Origin: Candidatus Hodarchaeota archaeon | GTDB lineage: Archaea; Asgardarchaeota; Heimdallarchaeia; Hodarchaeales; Hodarchaeaceae | Direction of reading: 5' to 3' | Assembly (NCBI GenBank): GCA_016839815.1 | Contig: JAEOTM010000074.1 | Location: 1-19,030, forward strand | Length of the DNA stretch: 19,030 bases | Shown here: in pieces, positions 1 to 19,030 of the stretch | Layout: each line of letters begins with the position of its first letter | Numbering within the stretch: the first letter of the stretch is position 1 | Translations under genes and position numbers: made by a program | The notes under the pieces: generated by a model | Databases searched by the model: none | What the model saw: only the letters and a program-made list of their open reading frames with translations | Told to the model about the DNA's origin: nothing

Positions 1-542
1 CCCTCTCTTGCATATTCTAGTGCGATTTCACGTCCAATCCCTTTTCCTGCTCCAGTAATTATGGCAATTCTCCCATCAAGTTTATTTGCTCTGATAGCTG
101 GTTCCTGTTCTCTTATAGGTAGATCTGTAGAGATTTTACCTCTAAAGACACGATATATTACTCTATCTCCCTCAATAACCTCAGGTTTCACAATGACTTT
201 CTCACCAATCTTAACTGGTTTGTCCTCTTGATCAATCCATGCTACTAGACGGCCACCCTCTTTTAAGGATACTACGCATACTGTATAAGGTGCGAATTGT
301 TCAAATCCCGCAGGAGGAACTTGTACTTCAGAAAACGATAATATCTTTCCCTCACCTGTAAAATCTAAATATTCAATATTATCATCAGTCAGACATTCTT
401 TGCAGTTAGCTCTGGGAGGATAATAAAGAACATCACAACGTGTACATCGAGTTCCTTCAAGTCTTCCTTCTCTTAAAGCAGTTAACAAACGTTTTCCAAT
501 TTTTGATTGTGAGATATAATCTCGATAACCAAATTGCTTCAA
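1..542 (-). CDS. DUF35 (Zn-ribbon + OB-fold) protein fused to a short-chain dehydrogenase/reductase; C-terminus runs off the left edge
   Basis: Not in the ORF track; translated by hand from TTG at 542, with SD GAGGTGA overlapping the thiolase stop. Sequence MKQFGYRDYISQSKIGKRLLTALREGRLEGTRCTRCDVLYYPPRANCKECLTDD...GKILSFSEVQVPPAGFEQFAPYTVCVVSLKEGGRLVAWI (DUF35) continues without a stop into KLDGRIAIITGAGKGIGREIALEYARE (SDR TGxxxGIG Rossmann motif). Confidence 0.9.
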   Translation of the reverse strand, partial: MKQFGYRDYISQSKIGKRLLTALREGRLEGTRCTRCDVLYYPPRANCKECLTDDNIEYLDFTGEGKILSFSEVQVPPAGFEQFAPYTVCVVSLKEGGRLVAWIDQEDKPVKIGEKVIVKPEVIEGDRVIYRVFRGKISTDLPIREQEPAIRANKLDGRIAIITGAGKGIGREIALEYARE

Positions 543-551
543 CTTAAAATT

Positions 552-1697
552 TCACCTCGAAAAAACATGTACAATACAATATTGGCCATGACCACCAACA
601 TTGTGAGTTAAACCAACCTCAGCACCGTTAACTTGTGTCTTTCCTGCTTCTCCACGAAGTTGTTGGACTATTCCATAAACCTGAGAACATCCAGTGGCTC
701 CTATAGGGTGGCCTTTGGCTTTAAGCCCTCCATCTACATTCACAGGAAGTTTTCCACCGATATAAGCCGACTTCACAAACTCACCCCCTTTTCCACGCTC
801 AGTAAAACCTAGGTCTTCATATGCCATTATTTCAGCTATTGTAAAACAATCATGGACTTCTGCAATATGAATTTCTCTTGGTTCAACCTTAGCTTGCTTA
901 TAAGCTATCTCTGACGCATTAACAGCACTGGTCAGTGTACTTAACTCTGGACGTGTTAAAAGAGAGAATGGAGCTGTTGCAGCTCCAAGCCCTTTTATCC
1001 ATATTGGAGTATCTGATAATCTCTTTGATTGTTCTTCATTTGCCACAATTAAGGCTGAACTACCATCAGCATTGGCACAACAGTCAAAAAGGTGCAATGG
1101 AGAAGCAATAATACGTGATTCCAGAACTTTTTCTATTGTTATTTCTTTTTGAAACATTGCTTTCTCATTCTTTATCCCATAATGATGAGCCTTTACTGCT
1201 ACCTCAGCTAATTGCTCTGAGGTTGTACCATACTTCTCCATATGACTCTGGGCATACATTGCATAATAGTTCGCAAAAGTTGTACCATAAGGTGCTTCCC
1301 ATTGTACATCTCCAGTTCGTCCCATAATCTTCAGAATTTCAGATGTTGGGTTTTCCAACATTTTTTGAACCCCAAGTACTAAAACAATATCGTGCATCTT
1401 CGATTTAATTAGTGCATAAGCAGTACGTAGTGCTGCTGCTGAACTACTACATGCAGCTTCTGTAAGCCAGACTGGTTGGGGATTTAAACCAAGGTATTCT
1501 GTAATCGGACCAGCAATACTTCGTTGCGTCATGTAAACTGGACTTGCTCCAATTATTGTAGCCCCTATATCTTTTTGACCTATTCCTGCGTCATTTACTG
1601 CCTCTACAAACGGTTCAAAGGCAAGTTCTGCCACTGTAACATCATCACGTCTACCAAATTTACTATGCCCTATCCCGACAATCCCTACTTGTGACAT
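552..1697 (-). CDS. Archaeal/SCP2-type thiolase (acetyl-CoA C-acyltransferase), DUF35-associated
   Basis: 381 aa; catalytic Cys in EAACSSS, plus EVHDCFT, GGLKAKGHPIGATG and THNVGG motifs; directly followed by a DUF35 gene. Confidence 0.92.
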   Translation of the reverse strand: MSQVGIVGIGHSKFGRRDDVTVAELAFEPFVEAVNDAGIGQKDIGATIIGASPVYMTQRSIAGPITEYLGLNPQPVWLTEAACSSSAAALRTAYALIKSKMHDIVLVLGVQKMLENPTSEILKIMGRTGDVQWEAPYGTTFANYYAMYAQSHMEKYGTTSEQLAEVAVKAHHYGIKNEKAMFQKEITIEKVLESRIIASPLHLFDCCANADGSSALIVANEEQSKRLSDTPIWIKGLGAATAPFSLLTRPELSTLTSAVNASEIAYKQAKVEPREIHIAEVHDCFTIAEIMAYEDLGFTERGKGGEFVKSAYIGGKLPVNVDGGLKAKGHPIGATGCSQVYGIVQQLRGEAGKTQVNGAEVGLTHNVGGHGQYCIVHVFSR

Positions 1698-1733: not shown

Positions 1734-2780
1734 TTACTTTTGGCATAAGATAACAGTACGCACGCCTTCACCACGGCGCATAACATCGAAAGCTTCATTT
1801 ATTTCAGAAAGAGGATACTTAGCAGTTACAAGTGGCTCAACCACTAAACTTTTGTATTTAACTAGCGCGATGATTCTAGGATAATCTACTGTTCGACAAC
1901 CTAGGCTTCCCACAAGTTCCATTTCACGAAACATTACACGGCCAATATCAAATCCATCCCATCTTTTGGGAGAATATCCAACTGCAACCAATCGACCTCC
2001 AGTCCTTAAGCTGTTGAATGCTTGTTTGAAGGTAGCAGGATTACCAATCGCTTCAAAGGCAATGTCTGCTCCTCCACCTGTTATTTTACGAATAGTTCCT
2101 ACAATTCCACGATCGTCCATTTTTTTTGCAGAAATTGTTTCAACAGCTCCCAGTTTTTTAGCGATATCTAATTTTTCAGGTACAATGTCTACAGCTATAG
2201 CTAAACCACCTGCAACGTTGATGTTTTGAACTATATTTAAACCAATCCCACCACATCCAATCACTACAGCCCAATCTCCTGGTTTTACCTGTCCTCGATT
2301 TTTTACGGCATGATAAGGAGTAGAAATTGCATCAGCGATGATACAACCTTCCTCTAATGGAATTTCTGATGGAAGATGGAATATATCTTTAACAGGAACC
2401 ATGATTTGTTCTGCAAACCCACCATCAACATTACTCCCAAAAAATGTCTGATTTAAACAAATGTTCTCACGTCCAGTTCTGCAGTGAAAACAATTTCCAC
2501 AAGATATTACAGCAGGAATTAGAACATGATCACCTTGTTTAAAGGATGTAACATCATCACTTCTTTCTCGAATTGTGCCTGCCATCTCGTGTCCTAAAAT
2601 TAAAGGTGGTGATTTACCTGTTGGCACACCATGGTCAAGAAAACCCAAATCGGTATGACAAACACCACATGCAGTGATATCGACAATCACATTGCCTGTT
2701 GTTCCAATAATATTCGGGGAGTCATAATCGTCCACAATTTTTAATGGTTCTTTTACTTTCTCAAAAACAGCCGCTCTCAT
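1734..2780 (-). CDS. had: 6-hydroxycyclohex-1-ene-1-carbonyl-CoA dehydrogenase (Had/BamQ/BzdX-like Zn-dependent alcohol dehydrogenase)
   Basis: CGVCHTD and GHE catalytic Zn ligands, structural Zn CGNCFHCRTGRENIC, GCGGIG NAD site; HGVPT...PPLILGHE and RVMFREMELVGSLGCR resemble Had/BamQ; adjacent to dch in a bzd island. Confidence 0.8.
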   Translation of the reverse strand: MRAAVFEKVKEPLKIVDDYDSPNIIGTTGNVIVDITACGVCHTDLGFLDHGVPTGKSPPLILGHEMAGTIRERSDDVTSFKQGDHVLIPAVISCGNCFHCRTGRENICLNQTFFGSNVDGGFAEQIMVPVKDIFHLPSEIPLEEGCIIADAISTPYHAVKNRGQVKPGDWAVVIGCGGIGLNIVQNINVAGGLAIAVDIVPEKLDIAKKLGAVETISAKKMDDRGIVGTIRKITGGGADIAFEAIGNPATFKQAFNSLRTGGRLVAVGYSPKRWDGFDIGRVMFREMELVGSLGCRTVDYPRIIALVKYKSLVVEPLVTAKYPLSEINEAFDVMRRGEGVRTVILCQK

Positions 2781-2847: not shown

Positions 2848-3615
2848 TTAGCGATTTCGCCATTCAGGCGGACGTTTATCGATAAAAGCTTGTAACCCCT
2901 CATTTGCATCATGTGTAGTCATGAGTTCATTGAGATATAGATCTTCTACTTCACTTAGTCTCTTATCAAAATCAGAATCGATCCCTAACTTAACAGCTTT
3001 TTTGGTGTATTGTAGTACAACTGAACTTAATTTAGTGAATCTTTCAAGAAATGAAGTTATATCCTTCTCATAAGATTCTAAGGGGAAAACATGATTAACA
3101 AGTCCTATTCTATGTGCTTCATTTGCATCGATAATTTCACCTTGTAAAATGAGCTCAAATGCTTTTTTCTCACCAAGGAGAAAAGGAAATATAACTGCTG
3201 ATACTGGAGGAAACACTCCAACCTTTATTTCCGGATTTCCAAATTTTGCTTTTTCAGAAGCTAAAACAATATCACAAAAAGCAGCTACCTCACATCCACC
3301 ACCTAATGCTGCTCCCTTTACACACGCGACTGTGGGTACTTTCATTCGATTTAGTCTTTTAAACATACCATGAAATATATCCAACATCTTTTGTGCTGTA
3401 TCACCCATATGTTCCCCTACATCAACTCCTGCGGAGAATGACTTCCCAAGGTGACTAAATACTACTGCTTTGAGAGATTTATCTTCCAAGAATCTATCAA
3501 GTACATCATTGATCTGTTCCATCATAGTAATATTTAGAATATTTAATGGACCGTTGTTAAAGATTATATTCCCAATATTTTCCTGTTTTTCAACAAGAAT
3601 TAATTCATCACTCAA
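2848..3615 (-). CDS. dch: Cyclohexa-1,5-diene-1-carbonyl-CoA hydratase (Dch/BamR/BzdW-like, crotonase family)
   Basis: FSAGVDVGEH, GAALGGGCE, PEIKVGVFPP and ELMTTHDANEGLQAFIDKRPPEW motifs; TTG start with GGTGA SD; benzoyl-CoA reductase context. Confidence 0.82.
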   Translation of the reverse strand: MSDELILVEKQENIGNIIFNNGPLNILNITMMEQINDVLDRFLEDKSLKAVVFSHLGKSFSAGVDVGEHMGDTAQKMLDIFHGMFKRLNRMKVPTVACVKGAALGGGCEVAAFCDIVLASEKAKFGNPEIKVGVFPPVSAVIFPFLLGEKKAFELILQGEIIDANEAHRIGLVNHVFPLESYEKDITSFLERFTKLSSVVLQYTKKAVKLGIDSDFDKRLSEVEDLYLNELMTTHDANEGLQAFIDKRPPEWRNR

Positions 3616-3999: not shown

Positions 4000-5553
4000 A
4001 TGAAATTACCAAATAATGTTGTAACCCAAATAACCCAATTTCTTGATAAATCACTAGTTTTAACTGATATTGAGGATCGTTATGCATATTCCTTTGAGAA
4101 AATATATGAAAAAAAATCTTACAGAATCCCTGATATTGTGGTAAGGGTTGATCAATTTACAAATACTAGTAAACTATTCAATTTAGCTAAGGATCAAGAT
4201 ATCACGGTCATTAGTAGGAGTACTTTTGATTCTAGACCAATAATAGAACCATCAAAAATAACAATATTGTTAGATGATCTAAAAAGACCTGACATGGAGA
4301 GAAGAATAGAGAAACCAGACGATCTTAAAAAAACTCTCATAAAAAAAATGCAATCCAATGCATATAGTGTCTATCATAATATTGCTTCTGTTCAACAGTT
4401 CATGAATTTAAAGGAGAGCTTAAATAAATGTTTACAACGTGACGTATGCGGCGGTTATTGTACAATCACTCCATCTTATCAAGGAATTGAAACATGGTCA
4501 GCTAAAGGAAGAATGCTTTTAATCAAAGGTTTAATGAAGGGAGAATTAGAGTATTCAAAAAAAATTGTCGACATAATGTATACCTGTAGTCAATGTGGAA
4601 ACTGTTTTGGAGAATGCTTTGAGCAATTAGATTTTCATAAGGCAATAACTCGTATACGACAGATTATTGCGGAAAAGAAATTGACTCCAAAGGTTTTTCA
4701 CACGACAGCTTCGAATATAATCACATCTGGAGATCCTGCAGCTATTCCAGCAGAAAAAAGGTTATCATGGATAGAAAATATTCTTGGTAATTCATTTCCA
4801 GAAAAAGCAGATTATGTTTATTGGGTAGGATGTATGGTATCATATCGTACTCCTAAAACTGCTATAGCCTTTTATAACATATTAAAAAATTCCCGTGTAT
4901 CCTTTACAATGTTAGGAAGGAATGAGGGGTGTTGTGGTTATGTTTTGTTATCATCAGGCCTTCTAGATGAAGCAAGGAAGGTTGCTAAGAAGACTGTTGA
5001 AAAAATTGAAAAAACGAAGGCAAAATCTTTAATTACTCCTTGTGCTGGTTGTTACTATACATTTACGAAGTTATTTCCTGAAATTGTGGATATAGAGTTA
5101 CCATGTGAGGTTCTGCATTCAACCCAATTCATTGAACGAGAAATTAAAGCTAATAAATTAGTATTAAACTCTCTTCAGGCAAAAGTTACATATCACGATC
5201 CATGCTCTTTAGGTAGACATTGTAATGTCTATGAGACTCCGAGGTATATTTTAGATGCTGTACCTAATCTTACAATAACAGAAATGCCCTTTAATCAATA
5301 TCAAGCTCGTTGTTGTGGGGGAGGTGGAGGATTATGGAATTATAATCATCAAATTAGTATGGATGCTGCATTAAAGAGGTTAAGTGACGACTTTATTCCA
5401 TTAGATATCAATATCTTAACCACAGCATGTCCACTTTGTCAAATGAACCTCAGAATTACCGCAAGGAGAAATTCAATACCTGTTCAAGTTAGGGATGTTA
5501 CAGAAATTATTGAGTCAGTTATGAATGAGAATCCTTATCTAAATAGCAGATAA
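4000..5553 (+). CDS. HdrD/GlcF-like Fe-S oxidoreductase with two CCG domains and a degenerate FAD-binding-like N-terminus
   Basis: CSQCGNCFGEC ferredoxin-like motif; CCG domains WVGC...EGCCG...PCAGC and YHDPC...RCCGGGG...TACPLC; N-terminus EDRYAYSFE...PDIVVR resembles the start of GlcD-type FAD-linked oxidases. Confidence 0.8.
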   Translation: MKLPNNVVTQITQFLDKSLVLTDIEDRYAYSFEKIYEKKSYRIPDIVVRVDQFTNTSKLFNLAKDQDITVISRSTFDSRPIIEPSKITILLDDLKRPDMERRIEKPDDLKKTLIKKMQSNAYSVYHNIASVQQFMNLKESLNKCLQRDVCGGYCTITPSYQGIETWSAKGRMLLIKGLMKGELEYSKKIVDIMYTCSQCGNCFGECFEQLDFHKAITRIRQIIAEKKLTPKVFHTTASNIITSGDPAAIPAEKRLSWIENILGNSFPEKADYVYWVGCMVSYRTPKTAIAFYNILKNSRVSFTMLGRNEGCCGYVLLSSGLLDEARKVAKKTVEKIEKTKAKSLITPCAGCYYTFTKLFPEIVDIELPCEVLHSTQFIEREIKANKLVLNSLQAKVTYHDPCSLGRHCNVYETPRYILDAVPNLTITEMPFNQYQARCCGGGGGLWNYNHQISMDAALKRLSDDFIPLDINILTTACPLCQMNLRITARRNSIPVQVRDVTEIIESVMNENPYLNSR

Positions 5554-6024
5554 TAGTTTTTGTATTAGTTCTGAAAATCTTTGGGCTGCAGCTTTTCTTT
5601 TTAAAAAGTTAATTTGGGTTGCTTCAACGAATTGGAGTGCATCAGGTTCACAGTTCTTAACACATAATGGGTCTCCATCGCAGAGATCACATTTTTTGAT
5701 TTGTCCATCTATACCTATTATAACTCCACCAAAAGGACAATGGGTGACGCAAAGCTTACAACCAACACACAAATCATAATTAATCAGCATAGCCCCCGTT
5801 TTTTCTTCTCTATATATTGCTCCCATAGGGCAAACAGTTTCACAAATGGGATCTTCACACTGTTGACAAATCATTGGAATATATAATCCTGAGCTTTCCC
5901 ATTTAATCACCTGTATTCTTGCATGGGATGGGTTACAAACTTTTTCGTGGTGAAGTGAACAGACTGCTTCACATATGCGACAACCAGAACAGTTCTCTGG
6001 ATTAACAAATAAGAAGTTTTTCAC
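5539..6024 (-). CDS. 4x[4Fe-4S] electron-transfer subunit (AorA/DmsB-like) of the aldehyde oxidoreductase
   Basis: CSGCRICEAVC, CQQCEDPICETVCP, CVGCKLCVTHCP and KCDLC...CVKNC motifs; GTG start 3 nt downstream of the AOR stop. Confidence 0.9.
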   Translation of the reverse strand: MKNFLFVNPENCSGCRICEAVCSLHHEKVCNPSHARIQVIKWESSGLYIPMICQQCEDPICETVCPMGAIYREEKTGAMLINYDLCVGCKLCVTHCPFGGVIIGIDGQIKKCDLCDGDPLCVKNCEPDALQFVEATQINFLKRKAAAQRFSELIQKLLSAI

Positions 6025-6027
6025 TAT

Positions 6028-7932
6028 TTAGTTCTCCATTCTAGACTTTTGTGATGATTGATTTTTTAATCCAAGATTGTGAAGGGTTTCATTACTAGGA
6101 ATCCCACTACTATCCCACCCATGGAGTGAGTAATATTCATCGATCATTCTTTTGAATTGCTCTTCATCGATCTTCTTTCCTTTGATAATAGGAAGTCCTA
6201 ATGGTGTTGGTTCTTTAAAGAATCTTTCAGGTAGTTTGTCGTCTTTTCTGGTGAATCCTTCACGATTATTAAACATCCGTTCTATAGTTACAATCCTTTC
6301 ACCGATTTCCATTAGTTGAGGTTTTGATAATTTTAAACCAGATGCTAACTCAATGAGTCTAGAAAATTCTTCGAATTTAGGTGCATGTACTGCACAAAAA
6401 ACAGTTTGAAATTTACATATTCCTATTGAATCAGTAATAGCGTATAATAGTTCTTGCCACCAAACCATACGACTCTTCCCCTCATAAGAAGTGTAATCTG
6501 AAGACATTGGGGCGCCATATATCTCTTCTAAAAGGTCTTCTGGGAGTCCATAAAGATCTATTGCTGGTCTACTTCTTAGATGATCTGCTCCTCGCGTTGA
6601 AGTTGCGATACCTAGTGCTAGACTTGGTGTTGGACGTTCATCAGAATGTAAATTGCTCATGCCTTTAATTTGCATAGCATAATACTCTGATTCCTTCCCT
6701 ATCTTTTCTATTGCAGGCAAAAATCCTTCAGCAAGTAAATTTCCTAAATAGCCTTCCCTTTTGCTTATTCTTTTTATAAGCTCAAAAACTACTTCTTCAT
6801 TACCCCAAGTAAGATCCAGACCATCGATCACTTTTTCTGAAAGCAACCCCTTCTCATAGAGCTCCATAACCCAAGCAATTATTCCGCCAATTTCTAGTGT
6901 ATCAATGCCATACTTATTCACAAGGTGATTAGCTACCAGTACAGTTTCCATTTTTTTACAATCAACCATAGTTCCAAAAGCACCTAAAGAAGTGTATTCT
7001 GGGCCTTCTCCAAAAATTGGGGCATATGGCCCTTCTTTTAGCGCATATCGATGCCGACAATGGACACTGCATCCATAACAACCAGACATTCCAATAGTAT
7101 ATTCATCCATTACTTCAGGCTCTAAATTTTCCCCATCCTCAAGTAGGTTAAGCTGAAAATTTCTTGTTCGAATCAAACCAGTAGTATTTGTATTGCTGTA
7201 TATTATGAGTGTTCCCCATTTTGATTGTGCTTTTGCCCATCGTGATCCTGTGATCATATTGTTCATTTCTGTACAATAGTCAAGTAATTGGTCAGGAAAA
7301 GCAAATTCTAAATCCATTGTTCCACGAGTTGCGATAGCTTTCAAATTCTTGGATCCCATAACACATCCCATCCCTGTTCGGCCCGCTGCATTCTTCATCC
7401 CAGTTCTTACATTTGCATATCTAACCAGATTTTCTCCTGCTTCTCCAATAACTAAGCTCTTAATTTGTTCGTCATTGTGGTCTGATCGGATTTGATCTTG
7501 AGTTTCAAAAGTGTCTTTTCCCCATAAATGGGTTGCATCACGAATTTCTACCTCTCCATTGTTTATCCAGATATAACTTGGTTTTGCAGCTTTCCCAGAA
7601 ATTATCAAGTGATCAAATCCTGCAAATCTCAATTCAGGAGCAAAAAAACCACCAATATTTGAGTCACCTACAGCTCCTGTTAAGGGTGATTTAGCTGCAA
7701 TATCACACCTTCCAGCACCTAGAGCAGGAATTCCCGTAAGTAAACCAGTCCCTACAAGTAAAGCGTTATCAGGTCCTAATGGATCAATATCAGGAGAAAC
7801 GTGATGATATAGATTGTACATATTAATTCCTCTCCCTCCAAGAAATTGATTCCTAAGTGATTTTGAGATTGGTTTTTTCTTGATTTGACCTGATGATAAA
7901 TCTATATAAGCAATTTTCCTATTCCAAACCAT
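6028..7932 (-). CDS. aor: Tungsten-type aldehyde:ferredoxin oxidoreductase family protein (AOR/WOR)
   Basis: 634 aa; KSPLTG, AAGRTGMGCVMGSKNLKAI, CYGCSVHC, EGPEY, GIDT, STRGADHL, DSIGICKF and DDKLPERF motifs. Confidence 0.92.
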   Translation of the reverse strand: MVWNRKIAYIDLSSGQIKKKPISKSLRNQFLGGRGINMYNLYHHVSPDIDPLGPDNALLVGTGLLTGIPALGAGRCDIAAKSPLTGAVGDSNIGGFFAPELRFAGFDHLIISGKAAKPSYIWINNGEVEIRDATHLWGKDTFETQDQIRSDHNDEQIKSLVIGEAGENLVRYANVRTGMKNAAGRTGMGCVMGSKNLKAIATRGTMDLEFAFPDQLLDYCTEMNNMITGSRWAKAQSKWGTLIIYSNTNTTGLIRTRNFQLNLLEDGENLEPEVMDEYTIGMSGCYGCSVHCRHRYALKEGPYAPIFGEGPEYTSLGAFGTMVDCKKMETVLVANHLVNKYGIDTLEIGGIIAWVMELYEKGLLSEKVIDGLDLTWGNEEVVFELIKRISKREGYLGNLLAEGFLPAIEKIGKESEYYAMQIKGMSNLHSDERPTPSLALGIATSTRGADHLRSRPAIDLYGLPEDLLEEIYGAPMSSDYTSYEGKSRMVWWQELLYAITDSIGICKFQTVFCAVHAPKFEEFSRLIELASGLKLSKPQLMEIGERIVTIERMFNNREGFTRKDDKLPERFFKEPTPLGLPIIKGKKIDEEQFKRMIDEYYSLHGWDSSGIPSNETLHNLGLKNQSSQKSRMEN

Positions 7933-9386: not shown

Positions 9387-10538
9387 ATGGTAACAGTGCA
9401 GATGAAAAAGAAAGAAGTCTTTGACCAGTTCAAAGATTGGTATGAAACTCGTCATGAATATGCAAAAGCATGGAAGGAAAAGACTGGTGGTAAAGTTATG
9501 GGCTATTTCTGTACTTACGTACCAGAAGAGATTCTCTATGCTGCAGAAATACTTCCAGTGCGGATTCTAGGTAGTCACGAACCTCAAGACGTAACAGAAC
9601 CACATATTTTCGCGATGTTCTGTCCTTTTTGTCGTGATTGTCTTGCGCAAGGACTAAAAGGTCGTTTTGACTATCTAGATGGAATTATGATTGCTCAAAG
9701 TTGTCTTCATATTAGACAGGCTTACACCAGTTGGGATCTTCATATTCCAACTGATTATAGTTACTATTTACCTCATCCAATGCATGTCCAAAGTCCTCGC
9801 GCAATCCCATATCTCCGAGAGGAGTTAATTCGATTCAAAAAATCTGTTGAGGAATGGATAGGGAAACCTATTACTGATGAGGATTTAAAACGTGGAATCG
9901 AATTAATGAATAAAAATCGACGCTTAATGAAAGAAGTATATGAGCTTAGAAAGAGACCTAACCCACCTCTCACTGGATTAGAAGCAATGTATATGGTCGT
10001 GTCAAGTCAAATGACTGATAAACATGAACATAACCGTGAGTTAGAAATAATTTTACAAGAACTTTCTAAACGTGATATAGGTGACCCTGGTGAAAGGTTA
10101 ATGATAATTGGATCTGAGGATGATGATACTGAGTTTTTAGCAATGGTTGAAGATCTAGGGGCAACTTTTGTAACAGATGATCATTGCACAGGTACTCGCT
10201 ATTTCTATGAAGAAATTAACCAAACTGGGGATTTAATGACTGCAATCGCAGAAAGATATGTGAAACGGGTTCCCTGTCCAAGTAAAGATTGGCCAGAACG
10301 CACTAGACTTGATCATATTATGCGAATGAGCAAAGAATATGATGTCCAAGGAGCAATACTAGTTCAACAAAAATTCTGTGATCCACATGAATTAGATATT
10401 CCTAAAATAAAGGAAGAATTAGAAAAAAATGGTCTCACAACGCTATTTCTAGAATTTGATGTTACAGTTCCAATCGGCCAATTTAAAACCCGTGTAGAGG
10501 CATTTCTTGAAATAATGCGGGAGGAAGATTTGTTTTAG
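9387..10538 (+). CDS. bzdN: Benzoyl-CoA reductase, bzd-type, subunit N
   Basis: [67 protein letters not shown] and QKFCDPHE; first gene of an N-O-P-Q run. Confidence 0.92.
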
Positions 10539-10549
10539 GAGGAAATAAA

Positions 10550-11863
10550 ATGAGTACAGCAAAATATTCTACTGAAAGATTGAAAAGCTGGGGAAAGGCA
10601 AAGACACTTCGAGAGAATTATTACAAGGATTTCGCAGAAGCTCATGAAAAAGGAGGAATTCGCTGGGCTGGAGGTGCTTGGTCTTTTGACGCCATTCCTG
10701 CTGGTCTAGGAGAAGATGTATGGTGTTTAACAGGAGAACCTTATGGAGCAACTGTGGCATTTAATAAAGATTTAGCACAGGAATGCCAAGAAGCTATCGA
10801 AACAAAAGGATTTGCAAGAGACCTTTGTTCGTATATGCGGAATTATTGGGGATCAGTTATCCTTAATAAATATGCTTGGCCACAATACTCCGAGGAATTC
10901 CCGAAACCTGATTTTATGTGGCAAGATCATATTTGTTGTTCACATGCAAAGTGGTATCAGGTTGCTAGTGATCTTGAAGGAGGGATTCCAACCTTTAACA
11001 TTGATGTTTCAGTAGGTCCTTATGAGGAATTAACAGAAAGTAGACTAAACTATATTGTTGGCCAAATGCATGATGGAATAAAGTGGTTAGAAAAGACTAC
11101 AGGAAGAGATTATGATGATGAACTTCTGATCAAAGCAGTTCATAATGAATTCCGTGCTTGTTATTATTGGGCAGCCATTTGTGAATTAAACAAAACAATA
11201 CCTGCACCATTAGATGAAAAATCTATGTATTCTCTGTATGTATTAGGCACGTTAAGAAAATCATCACAATGGACTGCAGATTTCTATGAGAAAGAGCTTT
11301 ACCCTGAAGTTAAAAATCGTGTAGAGCGTCAAATTGCCGCTGTTGAAAATGAACAATGTCGTATCATGACTGACACCCAACCTCCATGGGCTTTTCTTAA
11401 AGTATTCCGTTATCTAGAGAAATATGGATGTGTATCAATAGGAAGTCTGTATACTTTCGCGCTCATTGGTTTATGGGAAGATAAAGAAGATGGAAGTTGG
11501 GGACCGAGATCAATACCTGATATTGAGATTACAAACCGTGACGAAGCCTTACGAGCTCTTGCTGAATGGAATTTAAGCAAACCTGAATGGCAGCATTTTT
11601 ATCATCCAAAATTTAAATCTGAAATGATGATTAGGATTGCACGTGAATGGAAACTTGATGGAGTTCTTCTACACTTCAATAGAGGTTGTGAGGGTTTAAG
11701 CCTTGGTATAGCAGAAAATCGTTTAGCGATTCAAAAAGCTGGATTTCCAGTAATGCCATTTGAAGGTAATATGGGAGATGAAAGAGAGTTCGATCTTACT
11801 AGAACTATGATTCGAATAGACGCATTTATGGAAAGCCTTGGGATGAAGAAATTAGTGGATTAA
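10550..11863 (+). CDS. bzdO: Benzoyl-CoA reductase, bzd-type, subunit O
   Basis: [50 protein letters not shown] and [12 protein letters not shown]. Confidence 0.92.
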
Positions 11864-11876
11864 GAGTGGTGAAATT

Positions 11877-12668
11877 TTGATGACAACAATTGGAATTGAT
11901 TTAGGAGCAAAAAATACCAAAGTGGTGATATTGAGAGATAATGAGATTCTAACTACTGCTTCAGTCTTGAGTGGTTTTGATCAAAAAGCTTCTGCTGATG
12001 AAGCAATAGAGAAAGCAATTAATCAAGTTGGAATGTCTCGAGATGATATTAAATATATCACAGCAACAGGTGCAGGAGTTGATGCCATTAATTTTGCAAA
12101 TGAGACGGTGACTGAGATTAGTGCGAATGCCCGTGGTATATTCACAGTTTTTCCTTCTGTACGTACTGTAATAGATGTAGGGGCTGAAGAAGGAAGAGCA
12201 ATTCGCTTAAACGACAATGGAAAAGTCTTAGATTTTGGAATAAATGAGAAATGTGCTGCTGGAGCGGGTGCCTTTACTGAAGCAATGGCTCGAGCCTTGG
12301 AAGTAGATCTAGAAAAAATGGGAGAAATGTCATTAAAATCCACAAAAACAGTACCTATGAATGCACAATGTACTATCTTCGCTGAATCCGAAGTAGTTTC
12401 ATTAATCCACCAAAAAACACCAAAACAAGATATTATTCGTGCTGTACATGACGCAATAGCAGATCGAATTACTAGTATGGCTCGTAGAGTAGGTATTGAA
12501 AAAGAAGTAGCATTGACTGGTGGTGTAGCAAACAATATTGGTTTCGTCGATTCGATGAAAAGAAACTTAGGCTTTGAACTTTTGGTACCTAAGGATCCAG
12601 TTGTGCCAGAATTCATATCTGCTTATGGAGCTGCACTTATAGCTCAAGATAGAATAAATGGAGGATAA
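11877..12668 (+). CDS. bzdP: Benzoyl-CoA reductase, bzd-type, ATPase subunit P
   Basis: ASKHA ATPase motifs GIDLGAKNTK, IDVGAEEGR, NEKCAAGAG and NAQCTIFAESE; located between bzdO and bzdQ. Confidence 0.9.
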   Translation: MMTTIGIDLGAKNTKVVILRDNEILTTASVLSGFDQKASADEAIEKAINQVGMSRDDIKYITATGAGVDAINFANETVTEISANARGIFTVFPSVRTVIDVGAEEGRAIRLNDNGKVLDFGINEKCAAGAGAFTEAMARALEVDLEKMGEMSLKSTKTVPMNAQCTIFAESEVVSLIHQKTPKQDIIRAVHDAIADRITSMARRVGIEKEVALTGGVANNIGFVDSMKRNLGFELLVPKDPVVPEFISAYGAALIAQDRINGG

Positions 12669-17859: not shown

Positions 17860-18651
17860 TTATGACTCTGAATCTACAGCGTATAAAGCTGCACCTAGGG
17901 CAACAAAAAGTTGTGGATCAGGGGGAACTAGAATTGTTTTATCCAGTACATCTTTAAAAATGTCGATAATTACAGGATTGTGAGCTACAACTCCTCCCGT
18001 TAAAACTACATCATTCTCAATTGTATCTATTTCAATTACCCGTTGGACAATGGAATGAAATGCTCCACGGATCATATCTTCTGCTTTAACTCCTTCTCTA
18101 ATTCGAGCTAATATTTCCGTCCCTGCAAACACAGTACAATAACTACTTATTTTTTTTGGATCCGAAGATAGGCTTGCTAGTTCATTCAGATCTCTAGAGG
18201 GGATCCTCATCTTTAATGCTAGCTCCTCTAAAAATGTACCAGTACCAGCGGCACATTTTCTGTTCATTTTAAAGCTAGCTTGTTTTCCATTGCGTACTTT
18301 GATAATTTTTGTGTCTTGCCCTCCAATATCAATTATTGTTAGTGATTTTTCTGGATATAGGAAATTTGCAGCCTTTGCAGAGCAACTTATTTCAGTAATT
18401 GGTAGAATAGGTATTTTTTCGATTGTAAAATTCTTTCGTCCAAATCCTGATGTTACTACTTGTTTAATGTCAAGAAGGAATAACTCCTCTGAAAAAGATG
18501 TTTGTAAGGCTTTTTCTGCGGCAGCTTGTAAATTTACACCTGAGAAGTTAATACCTGACCCAGAGATGTTTTTATTTTGATCAAGTAATACTGTTTTTGT
18601 AAAGGATGATCCAATATCGATTCCTGCATAGAGGGATTTTCGTGACACCAT
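17860..18651 (-). CDS. 2-hydroxyacyl-CoA dehydratase activase / BadF-BadG-BcrA-BcrD family ATPase
   Basis: GIDIGSSFTK, TSGFGR, IDIGGQDTK, MNRKCAAGTGTFLE, SSYCTVFA and LTGGVVAHN. Confidence 0.9.
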   Translation of the reverse strand: MVSRKSLYAGIDIGSSFTKTVLLDQNKNISGSGINFSGVNLQAAAEKALQTSFSEELFLLDIKQVVTSGFGRKNFTIEKIPILPITEISCSAKAANFLYPEKSLTIIDIGGQDTKIIKVRNGKQASFKMNRKCAAGTGTFLEELALKMRIPSRDLNELASLSSDPKKISSYCTVFAGTEILARIREGVKAEDMIRGAFHSIVQRVIEIDTIENDVVLTGGVVAHNPVIIDIFKDVLDKTILVPPDPQLFVALGAALYAVDSES

Positions 18652-18690: not shown

Positions 18691-19030
18691 TTAAATCCCA
18701 GCCAGCTGTTCTATAAAGGCTTCAATATTTGTTTTTGTCTGTTCTTCACTGTAAACATTTAGATCATTAAGATCAGCATCAATTACTAAATTAGGAACAT
18801 TAGTTTGCATTTCCAATCTTTTTGGCATCCCATACTGCGTATTGGAGTTATTTGGACATGTTCTAGCATTATGGAAAAATATTCCATCAATATTAAACGC
18901 ATCTATCATATTTTTCAAGTATTTTATTTTACTAGCTTCGGATTGGTTAATGAAAAGTTTTGTGTAAGCTCTAGCCATGCTTGAATAGGGTTCATTCCGA
19001 TTAAAATCGGAAAATATCCAACTGTTACAG
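18691..19030 (-). CDS. C-terminal part of a 2-hydroxyacyl-CoA dehydratase / benzoyl-CoA reductase B-type subunit (start lies beyond the right edge)
   Basis: Frame is open to the window edge: ...CNSWIFSDFNRNEPYSSMARAYTKLFI...IDGIFFHNARTCPNNS...VPNLVIDADLND...TNIEAFIEQL, a typical HgdA/B-family C-terminus; sits upstream of an activase. Confidence 0.85.
   Translation of the reverse strand, partial: CNSWIFSDFNRNEPYSSMARAYTKLFINQSEASKIKYLKNMIDAFNIDGIFFHNARTCPNNSNTQYGMPKRLEMQTNVPNLVIDADLNDLNVYSEEQTKTNIEAFIEQLAGI

Follow-up and report, generated by a model that had tools for sequence, protein, structure and literature searches.

Several described systems place a DUF35 protein between a thiolase and a second enzyme. 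Voegeli et al. 2018 are said to have found that DUF35 in the Methanothermococcus thermolithotrophicus complex connects the thiolase with the enzyme catalysing the adjacent step. Schmerling et al. (bioRxiv 10.1101/2024.07.05.601840) described a complex of Sulfolobus acidocaldarius that unites KT/DUF35 (Saci_1121/1120) with Saci_1104, an SDR ketoacyl-CoA reductase, and with a MaoC dehydratase. For the lower benzoate pathway, AabC and AabD of Aromatoleum sp. CIB were assigned as 3-hydroxypimelyl-CoA dehydrogenase and 3-oxopimelyl-CoA thiolase from genetics and expression only (PMC9795900). Which enzymes process 3-hydroxypimelyl-CoA further in anaerobic aromatic degradation is poorly defined, and their usual annotation is that of generic beta-oxidation genes. 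Here, we describe an archaeal locus in which a DUF35 adaptor and an SDR are encoded as one protein next to a thiolase.

A DUF35::SDR fusion gene at a contig end

The window, by which we mean the whole stretch of 19,030 nucleotides analysed from contig JAEOTM010000074.1 of a Candidatus Hodarchaeota archaeon, starts at base 1 of that contig. The reading frame at this end (Table 1) comprises 180 aa, from a TTG start at 542-540 to an open 3' end, and encodes a complete DUF35, consisting of a Cys4 zinc ribbon and an OB fold, followed by a linker and the start of an SDR. Pfam profiles recognized zf-ChsH2 (PF12172; 39.7 bits, cut-off 23.2) and OB_ChsH2_C (PF01796; 50.2 bits, cut-off 27.1) in the first two segments, and the span of the OB fold was recovered again by a genome search. 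The CxxC pairs C33/C36 and C47/C50 are directly visible in the frame, and C33, C36 and C47 are invariant across 24 homologues. The glycine motif TGAGKGIG at residues 163-170 fits the TGxxxGxG cofactor motif of classical SDRs. Residues 159-180 match positions 2-23 (the first 22) of the adh_short profile with 17.6 bits, which is below the Pfam cut-off because the remaining SDR is missing. DUF35, the linker and TGAGKGIG all lie in a single frame, and the Pfam domains and direct reading thus agree with the initial annotation, which had described this architecture with a linker of about 20 aa and a thiolase gene preceding it; that thiolase is complete.

Table 1. Features of the fusion gene and its operon neighbours in the window
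Feature	Position	Strand	Remarks
DUF35::SDR fusion gene, 5' part	3..542	(-)	residues 1-180 of expected ~403; cut at contig end
DUF35 Cys4 zinc ribbon, rubredoxin-like	381..479	(-)	residues 22-54; C33, C36, C47, C50
DUF35 OB fold	195..359	(-)	residues 62-116
Interdomain linker	72..137	(-)	about residues 136-157, ~22 aa
SDR Rossmann-fold start, beta1 and TGAGKGIG glycine motif	3..71	(-)	residues 158-180
Thiolase/fusion junction	543..558	(-)	9 nt between genes
SCP2/archaeal-type thiolase	552..1697	(-)	381 aa, complete; predicted docking partner of DUF35
MDR, Had-like	1734..2780	(-)	best NCBIfam TIGR03201, 215 bits, below cut-off 338
Crotonase-family hydratase, Dch-like (dienoyl-CoA hydratase-like)	2848..3615	(-)	first gene of the operon; best NCBIfam TIGR03189, 183.7 bits, below cut-off 292.5

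The fusion gene is incomplete because the contig ends there, and neither a stop codon nor a frameshift is the cause. The remaining part of the SDR was absent from all other contigs of the assembly, in which the best other SDR was 37% identical. Since the contig breaks at this point and the metagenome-assembled genome (MAG) is 89.5% complete, the missing remainder is not evidence of absence. The position of the gene at the extreme end of a contig, together with an estimated contamination of 7.8% for the MAG and just 22 SDR residues present in the window, could raise the suspicion of a decaying gene or of a fusion created by misassembly. We regard this as scarcely credible, given that 58 database proteins share the junction, as do 15 complete, stop-free genomic copies, and that the remainder of the window is syntenic with the related genome G083. 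Moreover, among the short and patchy Logan contigs of four marine-sediment runs, one contig from a separate run covers window positions 1-146 with zero differences and extends 11 nt beyond the window start. The initial annotation had singled out positions of about 90-160 as the stretch whose sequence support mattered and had named an interruption of the linker by a stop or a frameshift as a possible flaw; the independent contig is identical as far as position 146, and the 15 genomes encode the fusion uninterrupted. A scan for sigma-70 promoters and terminators stayed at chance level with a bacterial-type model that is not applicable to an archaeon.

Full-length orthologues of the fusion

The same DUF35 and SDR architecture recurs in 58 homologues, which are full-length at about 403 aa and 54-85% identical; these and the 15 uninterrupted genomic copies indicate that the reading frame is neither chance nor chimeric. 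The 403-aa protein P0001 is 85-87% identical to the window frame across the entire length of the latter. In the 15 orthologues the full-length SDR is intact, with TGAGKGIG, NNAG (243-246) and the catalytic tetrad N268-S298-Y311-K315 all invariant (P0001 numbering), so that the complete SDR anticipated in the initial annotation is present in the family, although NNAG and the tetrad fall beyond residue 180, where the window frame ends. The linker is the sole stretch that varies in both sequence and length among these orthologues. For a full-length orthologue, an AlphaFold monomer computed from an alignment of 15 rows reached a mean pLDDT of just 56.6, a poor model in which pLDDT was low in the linker.

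Among 1.84 billion representatives, the whole fusion was covered by only one cluster at 50% identity, and the full-length fusions form a single tight family, encountered solely in Asgard archaea. The SDR part scored 233.6 bits against the FabG subfamily NF009466 (NCBIfam, cut-off 222; full-length SDR), and among characterised SDRs, FabG and (3R)-hydroxyacyl-CoA dehydrogenase come closest to it. The fused SDRs formed a single clade (SH-aLRT 100) in the SDR tree, and the sister group of this clade was not resolved in two SDR trees. A joint clade with the SDRs encoded next to Oah in bacteria reached a support of just 0.73, and a putative orthology of the two groups is without good support in the trees. 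A contig scan with the fusion alignment was dominated by generic SDR motifs and returned one fused locus; the bacterial loci served as outgroup and context.

Pairing of the fusion with a thiolase

The protein encoded upstream of the fusion matched Thiolase_C_1 (Pfam, 143.5 bits) and NF004720 (NCBIfam, 475.8 bits, cut-off 420), and its C83, H330 and HDCF motif (from H282) are invariant. A Shine-Dalgarno-like GAGGTGA (552-558) contains the stop codon TGA of the thiolase (552-554) and lies 9 nt ahead of the TTG start, an arrangement by which the junction may couple translation of the two genes. The thiolase was found directly upstream of the fusion in 13/13 loci inspected. In G397, a genome of another family, it still precedes the fusion directly, with nothing else conserved and the pair located away from other pathway genes.

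Structural comparisons point to the same partnership. The best PDB match of the DUF35 part was 6ESQ_E (E 1e-16), chain A of 6ESQ was the second-best PDB match of the thiolase (E 1.7e-70), and both proteins also matched BbsA/BbsB in 7PXP. A model of the complex predicts docking of the DUF35 domain to the thiolase with an ipSAE of 0.89, as opposed to 0.00 for the best control, a result that may echo the solved homologous complexes 6ESQ and 7PXP. The model runs agreed in at least 97% of contacts with a partner pLDDT of at least 91, and 58 of 80 solved complexes attained the mark used for the docking score, as did 2 of 110 mismatched pairs. The association with the thiolase that the initial annotation had suggested, and for which it had proposed modelling of the complex, is supported by the conserved gene pair and agrees with the predicted docking.

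Benzoyl-CoA pathway context and proposed function

The window also encodes BzdN (score 491.6, cut-off 453.8), BzdO (694.4, cut-off 448.6) and BzdQ (409.6, cut-off 380.2). Every genus relative inspected has the gene for the Had-like MDR in syntenic position, and that for the Dch-like hydratase is syntenic in relatives. In G083, which is fully syntenic with the window, the gene order continues with the fusion, ACAD, Oah/BamA, thiolase-2, 3HCDH and CoA ligase. By synteny, the rest of the SDR and then these genes, the ACAD on the opposite strand, would be expected beyond the contig end of the source genome. In G005, Oah (562.6, cut-off 464.45) immediately follows the fusion, and in G009 it lies 129 kb away from it. 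The full fusion was present in 15/400 Asgard genomes, and Oah was found in those 15 and one 70%-complete genome but in none of the remaining ones, a co-occurrence that amounts to about two independent lineages. Oah was not detected in the searched source genome, which the contig break and the completeness of 89.5% may explain. The earlier assignment to the lower benzoyl-CoA pathway thus gains from the Bzd proteins in the window, the linkage to Oah in relatives, the co-occurrence across genomes and the bacterial operons described below.

We propose, with a probability of roughly 0.6, that the fusion is a 3-hydroxypimelyl-CoA dehydrogenase tethered to a 3-oxopimelyl-CoA thiolase within an anaerobic benzoyl-CoA pathway of Asgard archaea. 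The N-terminal DUF35 adaptor would clamp onto the thiolase, whose gene lies 9 nt upstream, at its loop domain, and the flexible linker of about 22 residues would bear the classical FabG-like SDR, so that the SDR would be permanently held beside the thiolase. In the order of the pathway, BzdNOPQ would be followed by the Dch-like hydratase, the Had-like MDR and Oah, and the thiolase and fusion would perform the two steps following ring opening. The SDR would oxidize 3-hydroxypimelyl-CoA to 3-oxopimelyl-CoA, which the thiolase would convert to glutaryl-CoA and acetyl-CoA, the unstable 3-oxoacyl-CoA being handed directly between the tethered sites. We infer the substrate, the direction of the reaction and the channelling from the gene context.

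The same parts occur unfused in bacteria. Oah, SDR, thiolase and DUF35 are encoded by consecutive genes in 11/20 Oah loci (the Desulfobacterales-type order), and in most of these loci a separate ECH and 3HCDH come next and are available for the C4 steps. No biochemical characterisation of these modules was found in the literature searched. The bacterial parts are 49-55% (thiolase), 39-43% (SDR) and 29-37% (DUF35) identical to the Asgard ones, and the window thiolase is only 23-36% identical to the other DUF35-paired thiolases of its own genome.

These loci bear on whether the pair might act in the same benzoate or alicyclic cluster on another intermediate, that is, in the terminal C4 steps or on another dicarboxylic or alicyclic 3-hydroxyacyl-CoA. 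In the C4 variant, 3-hydroxybutyryl-CoA would be converted via acetoacetyl-CoA to two acetyl-CoA, and 3HCDH and thiolase-2 would take the C7 step. The structurally solved archaeal thiolases paired with DUF35 are indeed acetoacetyl-CoA thiolases (6ESQ), and sequence does not fix the substrate specificity. Because the cluster of the relatives contains a second dehydrogenase/thiolase pair, 3HCDH and thiolase-2, sequence does not tell which pair performs which step either. However, the bacterial SDR-thiolase-DUF35 genes directly follow Oah, whereas ECH and 3HCDH, the canonical (S)-specific enzymes leading from crotonyl-CoA to acetoacetyl-CoA, form a separate unit behind them, and the window thiolase is nearer to the Oah-linked thiolases than to the others of its own genome. 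We therefore consider another intermediate unlikely, though it is the alternative to which we give the most weight.

The cofactor signature of the fused SDR raises the question of direction. It consists of the K of TGAGKGIG and the R of AART, which directly follows beta-2; in the standard SDR classification this combination denotes the NADP(H) type, and NADP(H)-type SDRs are more usual among reductive ketoacyl reductases. The pair could accordingly be imagined as an ACP-independent condensation-reduction module running in the synthetic direction with NADPH, the crotonase serving as dehydratase and the MDR as enoyl reductase. Such a module would have a precedent in S. acidocaldarius, where the SDR ketoacyl-CoA reductase bound by KT/DUF35 is NADPH-dependent and (R)-specific and the cycle is closed by an MDR enoyl-CoA reductase; the fusion is FabG-like, and the four clustered genes nominally span all four reaction types. 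Against this stands the restriction of the fusion to genomes carrying Oah rather than a broad distribution in Asgard archaea, as well as the location of the bacterial counterparts inside catabolic Oah operons. Furthermore, the MDR matched Had best (215 bits, as compared with 161 bits for archaeal acryloyl-CoA reductase), and the hydratase is a crotonase with Dch as its best match instead of a MaoC dehydratase. A synthetic role is, in our estimation, improbable.

A MaoC gene was found in none of the clusters inspected. The Sulfolobus-type archaeal fatty acid synthase set was considered for this locus and rejected: the locus has KT/DUF35 and an NADP-type SDR, but MaoC is missing and the MDR is Had-like.

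Discussion

A natural fusion of adaptor and dehydrogenase constitutes Rosetta-stone evidence that both enzymes act as one complex. Our analysis names concrete candidates for the enzymes downstream of ring opening, in Asgard archaea as well as in the widespread bacterial Oah-SDR-thiolase-DUF35 operons. The repertoire of DUF35-scaffolded thiolases, which includes mevalonate formation, fatty-acid synthesis in Sulfolobus, and steroid and toluene degradation, would be extended to a covalently tethered dehydrogenase, and the thiolase and the fusion provide a compact two-protein system suited to tests of substrate channelling.

One could go further and speculate that the pair is an obligatory dehydrogenase-thiolase channelling machine, which also assembles non-covalently from the bacterial operons and which, being reversible with NADPH, serves ACP-independent chain elongation in Asgard archaea. 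If this were true, the closest archaeal relatives of eukaryotes would gain a means of making fatty acids or dicarboxylic acids. We hold this extended view to be a long shot. By itself, the fusion has no bearing on fatty-acid synthesis in Asgard archaea, and the evidence points away from a role in it. We return to the putative tethered 3-hydroxypimelyl-CoA dehydrogenase for the comparison with known systems.

The initial annotation had regarded the DUF35-SDR architecture as uncharacterised, and we likewise found no description of it in the literature searched. The bacterial operons of strict anaerobes (loci L133-L151) carry the same three parts beside Oah/BamA as the Asgard locus, but spread over three genes, ordered SDR-thiolase-DUF35, whereas the Asgard order is thiolase-DUF35::SDR with a covalent connection. 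AabC and AabD resemble the Asgard pair in the proposed lower-benzoate reactions; they are separate enzymes for which no DUF35 was reported. The M. thermolithotrophicus thiolase/HMG-CoA synthase/DUF35 complex (6ESQ, 6ET9), which supplies the top PDB match for the Asgard DUF35, belongs to the mevalonate pathway, and its DUF35 is a free subunit with HMG-CoA synthase as the partner instead of being fused to an SDR.

ChsH2-Ltp2 from steroid side-chain degradation (6OK1) is similar in that its DUF35 part docks a protein of thiolase fold and is covalently joined to an enzyme from a neighbouring step; there, however, the joined enzyme is a MaoC hydratase and the docked Ltp2 an aldolase, as opposed to the SDR and thiolase in Asgard archaea. 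The benzoylsuccinyl-CoA thiolase BbsAB (7PXP) is a DUF35/thiolase pair of anaerobic aromatic degradation in which the preceding step is catalysed by the SDR BbsCD, which, unlike the Asgard SDR, is not fused to its DUF35 protein, BbsA. The similarity of the Asgard DUF35 to ChsH2 and BbsA is weak (E 1e-4 to 1e-7). The Sulfolobus complex, compared here by description, shares with the Asgard pair a DUF35-bearing thiolase and a FabG-like, NADP-type SDR for the 3-oxoacyl-CoA that the thiolase forms or uses, a role proposed for the Asgard SDR, and the binding of these partners has been demonstrated in Sulfolobus. There the SDR binds non-covalently as a protein of its own and serves fatty-acid synthesis, whereas the Asgard SDR is fused to DUF35, has no MaoC partner in its cluster and stands in a catabolic context.

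Truncated fusion gene at the contig start

The source MAG comprises 4.24 Mb in 206 contigs (completeness 89.5%, contamination 7.8%), and the window covers the first 19,030 bases of its contig C15. Four closely packed genes lie on the minus strand at the contig start. The initial annotation had proposed that the gene after the thiolase joins a DUF35, a linker and the start of a short-chain dehydrogenase (SDR) in one frame, and this reading is correct: the 180-residue fragment in the window contains both DUF35 domains and the glycine motif of the SDR. A Shine-Dalgarno-like GAGGTGA, which includes the thiolase stop codon TGA, is located 9 nt ahead of the TTG start of the fusion.

The gene was un-called and is incomplete only because the contig ends. 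Its remainder was absent from all other contigs of the assembly, where the best other SDR was 37% identical. A 157-nt contig from a separate marine-sediment run extends 11 nt past the window start and matches positions 1-146 with 0 differences. Because this independent contig spans the junction, the junction is not specific to this assembly.

Features of the window and the basis of their assignment
Feature	Position	Strand	Basis
Fusion ORF	TTG start at 542, leaves contig at base 3	-	ORF reading
Cys4 zinc ribbon	fusion fragment	-	Pfam zf-ChsH2, 39.7 bits
OB fold	fusion fragment	-	Pfam OB_ChsH2_C, 50.2 bits
Linker	fusion fragment, between OB fold and SDR start	-	initial annotation
SDR start incl. 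TGAGKGIG	fusion fragment	-	first 22 SDR profile positions
Thiolase, SCP2-type	552-1697	-	Pfam/ORF reading
Zn-type MDR dehydrogenase	1734-2780	-	Pfam/ORF reading
Crotonase	2848-3615	-	Pfam/ORF reading
HdrD/CCG-domain protein	4000-5553	+	
4Fe-4S protein	5539-6024	-	
AOR	6028-7932	-	
BzdN	window		491.6 bits (cut-off 453.8)
BzdO	window		694.4 bits (cut-off 448.6)
BzdQ	window		409.6 bits (cut-off 380.2)
BcrAD/BadFG-type activase (third)	17860-18651	-	
HadB/HgdA-like subunit, C-terminal end	18691-19029	-	

Conservation and distribution of the fusion

The fusion is a conserved, genuine protein. A search limited to longer proteins retrieved 58 homologues of the fragment, nearly all of 400-423 aa and 54-85% identical; a complete SDR is present in every one, and both DUF35 Pfam domains in all except one. 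The named homologues all belong to Asgard archaea, under the labels 'FabG' or 'glucose 1-dehydrogenase'. An alignment of 15 of the 58 shows no variation in the zinc-ribbon cysteines, TGAGKGIG, NNAG or the catalytic N268-S298-Y311-K315, and a highly conserved SDR domain. Variation in sequence and length is confined to residues ~136-157, as expected for a linker. In three homologues labelled Kariarchaeaceae (P0054, P0056 and P0058), Asp replaces the fourth zinc-ribbon Cys (CTKND instead of C..C), and zinc binding by these ribbons may be altered or absent. The fused SDR has a Lys within the glycine motif and an Arg directly after beta-2 (AART), which we take to be an NADP(H)-type signature under the usual SDR classification.

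Only one among 1.84 billion 50%-identity representatives covered the full 403 residues, the other long matches checked being plain SDRs or unrelated fusions, and trees group the fused SDRs in a single tight clade (SH-aLRT 100). The fusion thus had a single origin and has a narrow distribution. The full-length form was found in 15 of 400 sampled genomes of the phylum, namely 14 of 21 further genomes sampled from the window's genus and G397, a genome from a different family. Since this one GTDB genus carries the submitter labels Heimdall-, Thor- or Promethearchaeota, the label names overstate the spread.

Pairing and predicted docking with the thiolase

An SCP2-type thiolase lies immediately upstream of the fusion in 13 of 13 loci examined, including that of G397, where it is the only conserved neighbour. 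In G397 (locus L122, G397:C7:32000-51999, at 9593-11981), the thiolase and the fusion are 80% and 68% identical to those of the window, the same similarity as same-genus copies. The pair is surrounded by unrelated genes (VapC, MtrH-like, TldD), with Oah, the ring-opening hydrolase, and BzdO encoded elsewhere in the genome; together this suggests that the pathway was transferred laterally among Asgard archaea.

The window thiolase retains the catalytic Cys83 and His330 and the HDCF motif. The top PDB match of the DUF35 domain was 6ESQ_E from the M. thermolithotrophicus thiolase/HMG-CoA synthase complex (E 1e-16), and the thiolase chain of 6ESQ was the second-best match of the thiolase (E 1.7e-70); both proteins also match BbsA/BbsB of 7PXP. 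The complex prediction suggested for this pair, run with the thiolase and fusion residues 1-135, docked the two at an ipSAE of 0.89, a mark attained in 58 of 80 solved complexes and in 2 of 110 mismatched pairs; the highest-scoring of three controls gave 0.00. As homologous complexes are already solved, this pass indicates likeness to them rather than proof of binding. The runs shared at least 97% of contacts with partner pLDDT of at least 91, and the predicted interface comprises thiolase residues 119-154, 195-201 and 246-252, taken to be the loop domain.

Pathway context of the fusion

By profile scores, the remainder of the window holds Azoarcus-type class I benzoyl-CoA reductase genes, with a second, BzdP-like activase. 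The operon crotonase and MDR best matched Dch (TIGR03189) and Had (TIGR03201), respectively, both below cut-off. In some relatives, a gene for a 223-aa metallo-beta-lactamase-fold protein is inserted between these two (L026:6665-7336, L029:12704-13375 and L030:12816-13487).

The AOR, 4Fe-4S and convergent HdrD/CCG-domain genes separate the operon from the bzd genes, and the CCG gene is kept beside the operon in most relatives. Several Desulfobacterales Oah loci have an AOR-Fer4-CCG trio in BamB/C/D-like order near Oah, at only ~30% identity to the window proteins. The third activase and the HadB/HgdA-like subunit, cut by the window end, indicate a putative second ATP-driven radical dehydratase or reductase system next to the bzd genes.

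The gene directly after the fusion in the close relative G005 is a true Oah/BamA (TIGR03200, 562.6 bits; cut-off 464.45). Another relative's contig, G083:C15, is syntenic with the entire window and continues past the fusion with ACAD, Oah, a second thiolase, a 3HCDH-type dehydrogenase and a CoA ligase, which is most probably the order of the window's missing flank. Three relatives have the ACAD on the opposite strand between fusion and Oah (L121:4987-6186 (+), L123:3897-5111 and L124:5980-7194), and in others an ACAD is found at a distance of 2-6 kb, together with EtfB and a ferredoxin-domain EtfA. The ACAD between fusion and Oah scores highest against acryloyl-CoA reductase AcrC (368 bits), followed by non-decarboxylating glutaryl-CoA dehydrogenase at 346 bits, neither of which reaches its cut-off; it is a candidate for the glutaryl-CoA step. 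Of the 400 Asgard genomes, only the 15 with the fusion and one further, 70%-complete genome encode Oah, a co-occurrence that represents only about two independent lineages and should not be over-read.

Separate SDR, thiolase and DUF35 genes at bacterial Oah loci

Among 151 genomes sampled from the order of one Desulfobacteraceae MAG, 60 encode Oah above cut-off. Of 20 Oah loci taken with sufficient flank, eleven have SDR, thiolase and DUF35 as three separate, co-directional genes directly adjoining Oah, followed in most by ECH and 3HCDH. These SDRs are 39-43% identical to the fused SDR and the stand-alone DUF35s 29-37% to the Asgard domain. The SCP2-type thiolases are 49-55% identical to that of the window, compared with 23-36% for the three further thiolases that are paired with a DUF35 in its own genome. 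The SDR-thiolase-DUF35 module thus recurs regularly in anaerobic benzoyl-CoA clusters, immediately following the ring-opening hydrolase, and the later C4 steps could be served by a separate ECH/3HCDH unit. In the Asgard lineage the same parts are present in rearranged and fused form. SDR trees allow a shared ancestry of the fused, thiolase-adjacent and Oah-adjacent SDRs, at a support of only 0.73 and without resolving the sister group.

Benzoyl-CoA clusters in a Bacteroidetes MAG (L051) and a KSB1 MAG (L105) encode an Oah that shares 70% and 57% identity, respectively, with the Asgard protein, along with a stand-alone FabG-like SDR, Dch-like and Had-like genes and subunits resembling class I BCR; neither DUF35 nor an SCP2-type thiolase was detected within their flanks.

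Proposed role and comparison with known complexes

For the channelling role in the lower benzoyl-CoA pathway proposed by the initial annotation, the domain architecture, its conservation, the thiolase pairing and the gene context are established here and the docking is modelled; we infer the substrate, direction, channelling and oligomeric state. The DUF35 domain would clamp the thiolase beside its CoA-binding loop domain, and the ~22-residue linker would hold the SDR within reach. The SDR would oxidise 3-hydroxypimelyl-CoA, the product of Oah, and the thiolase would split 3-oxopimelyl-CoA into glutaryl-CoA and acetyl-CoA. The ACAD/ETF encoded nearby would then take over glutaryl-CoA, leaving the C4 steps to ECH/3HCDH/thiolase-2. 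The tethered pair might instead act on another intermediate of the same pathway, for example in the C4 steps, a reading compatible with the sequence and a more serious rival than a reductive role. The latter would suit the NADP-type signature and FabG/(3R)-dehydrogenase likeness too, and it has a precedent in S. acidocaldarius, whose fatty-acid synthase complex contains a KT/DUF35 pair with an NADPH-specific SDR reductase bound to it (bioRxiv 10.1101/2024.07.05.601840). However, we rate it low because the fusion is restricted to genomes with Oah, the cluster hydratase and MDR resemble Dch and Had and not a MaoC dehydratase and an enoyl reductase, and the bacterial counterparts are located in catabolic operons.

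For the steps proposed here for the SDR-thiolase pair, publications on benzoate degradation in Asgard archaea or bacteria name generic beta-oxidation genes. DUF35-scaffolded thiolase complexes are already known, as is a non-covalent thiolase/DUF35/SDR complex. No DUF35-SDR fusion was described in the literature searched, in agreement with the view that the architecture is uncharacterised, and the covalent fusion is therefore the new feature: the SDR is bound non-covalently by KT/DUF35 in the S. acidocaldarius complex, whereas in Asgard archaea it is fused to the DUF35.
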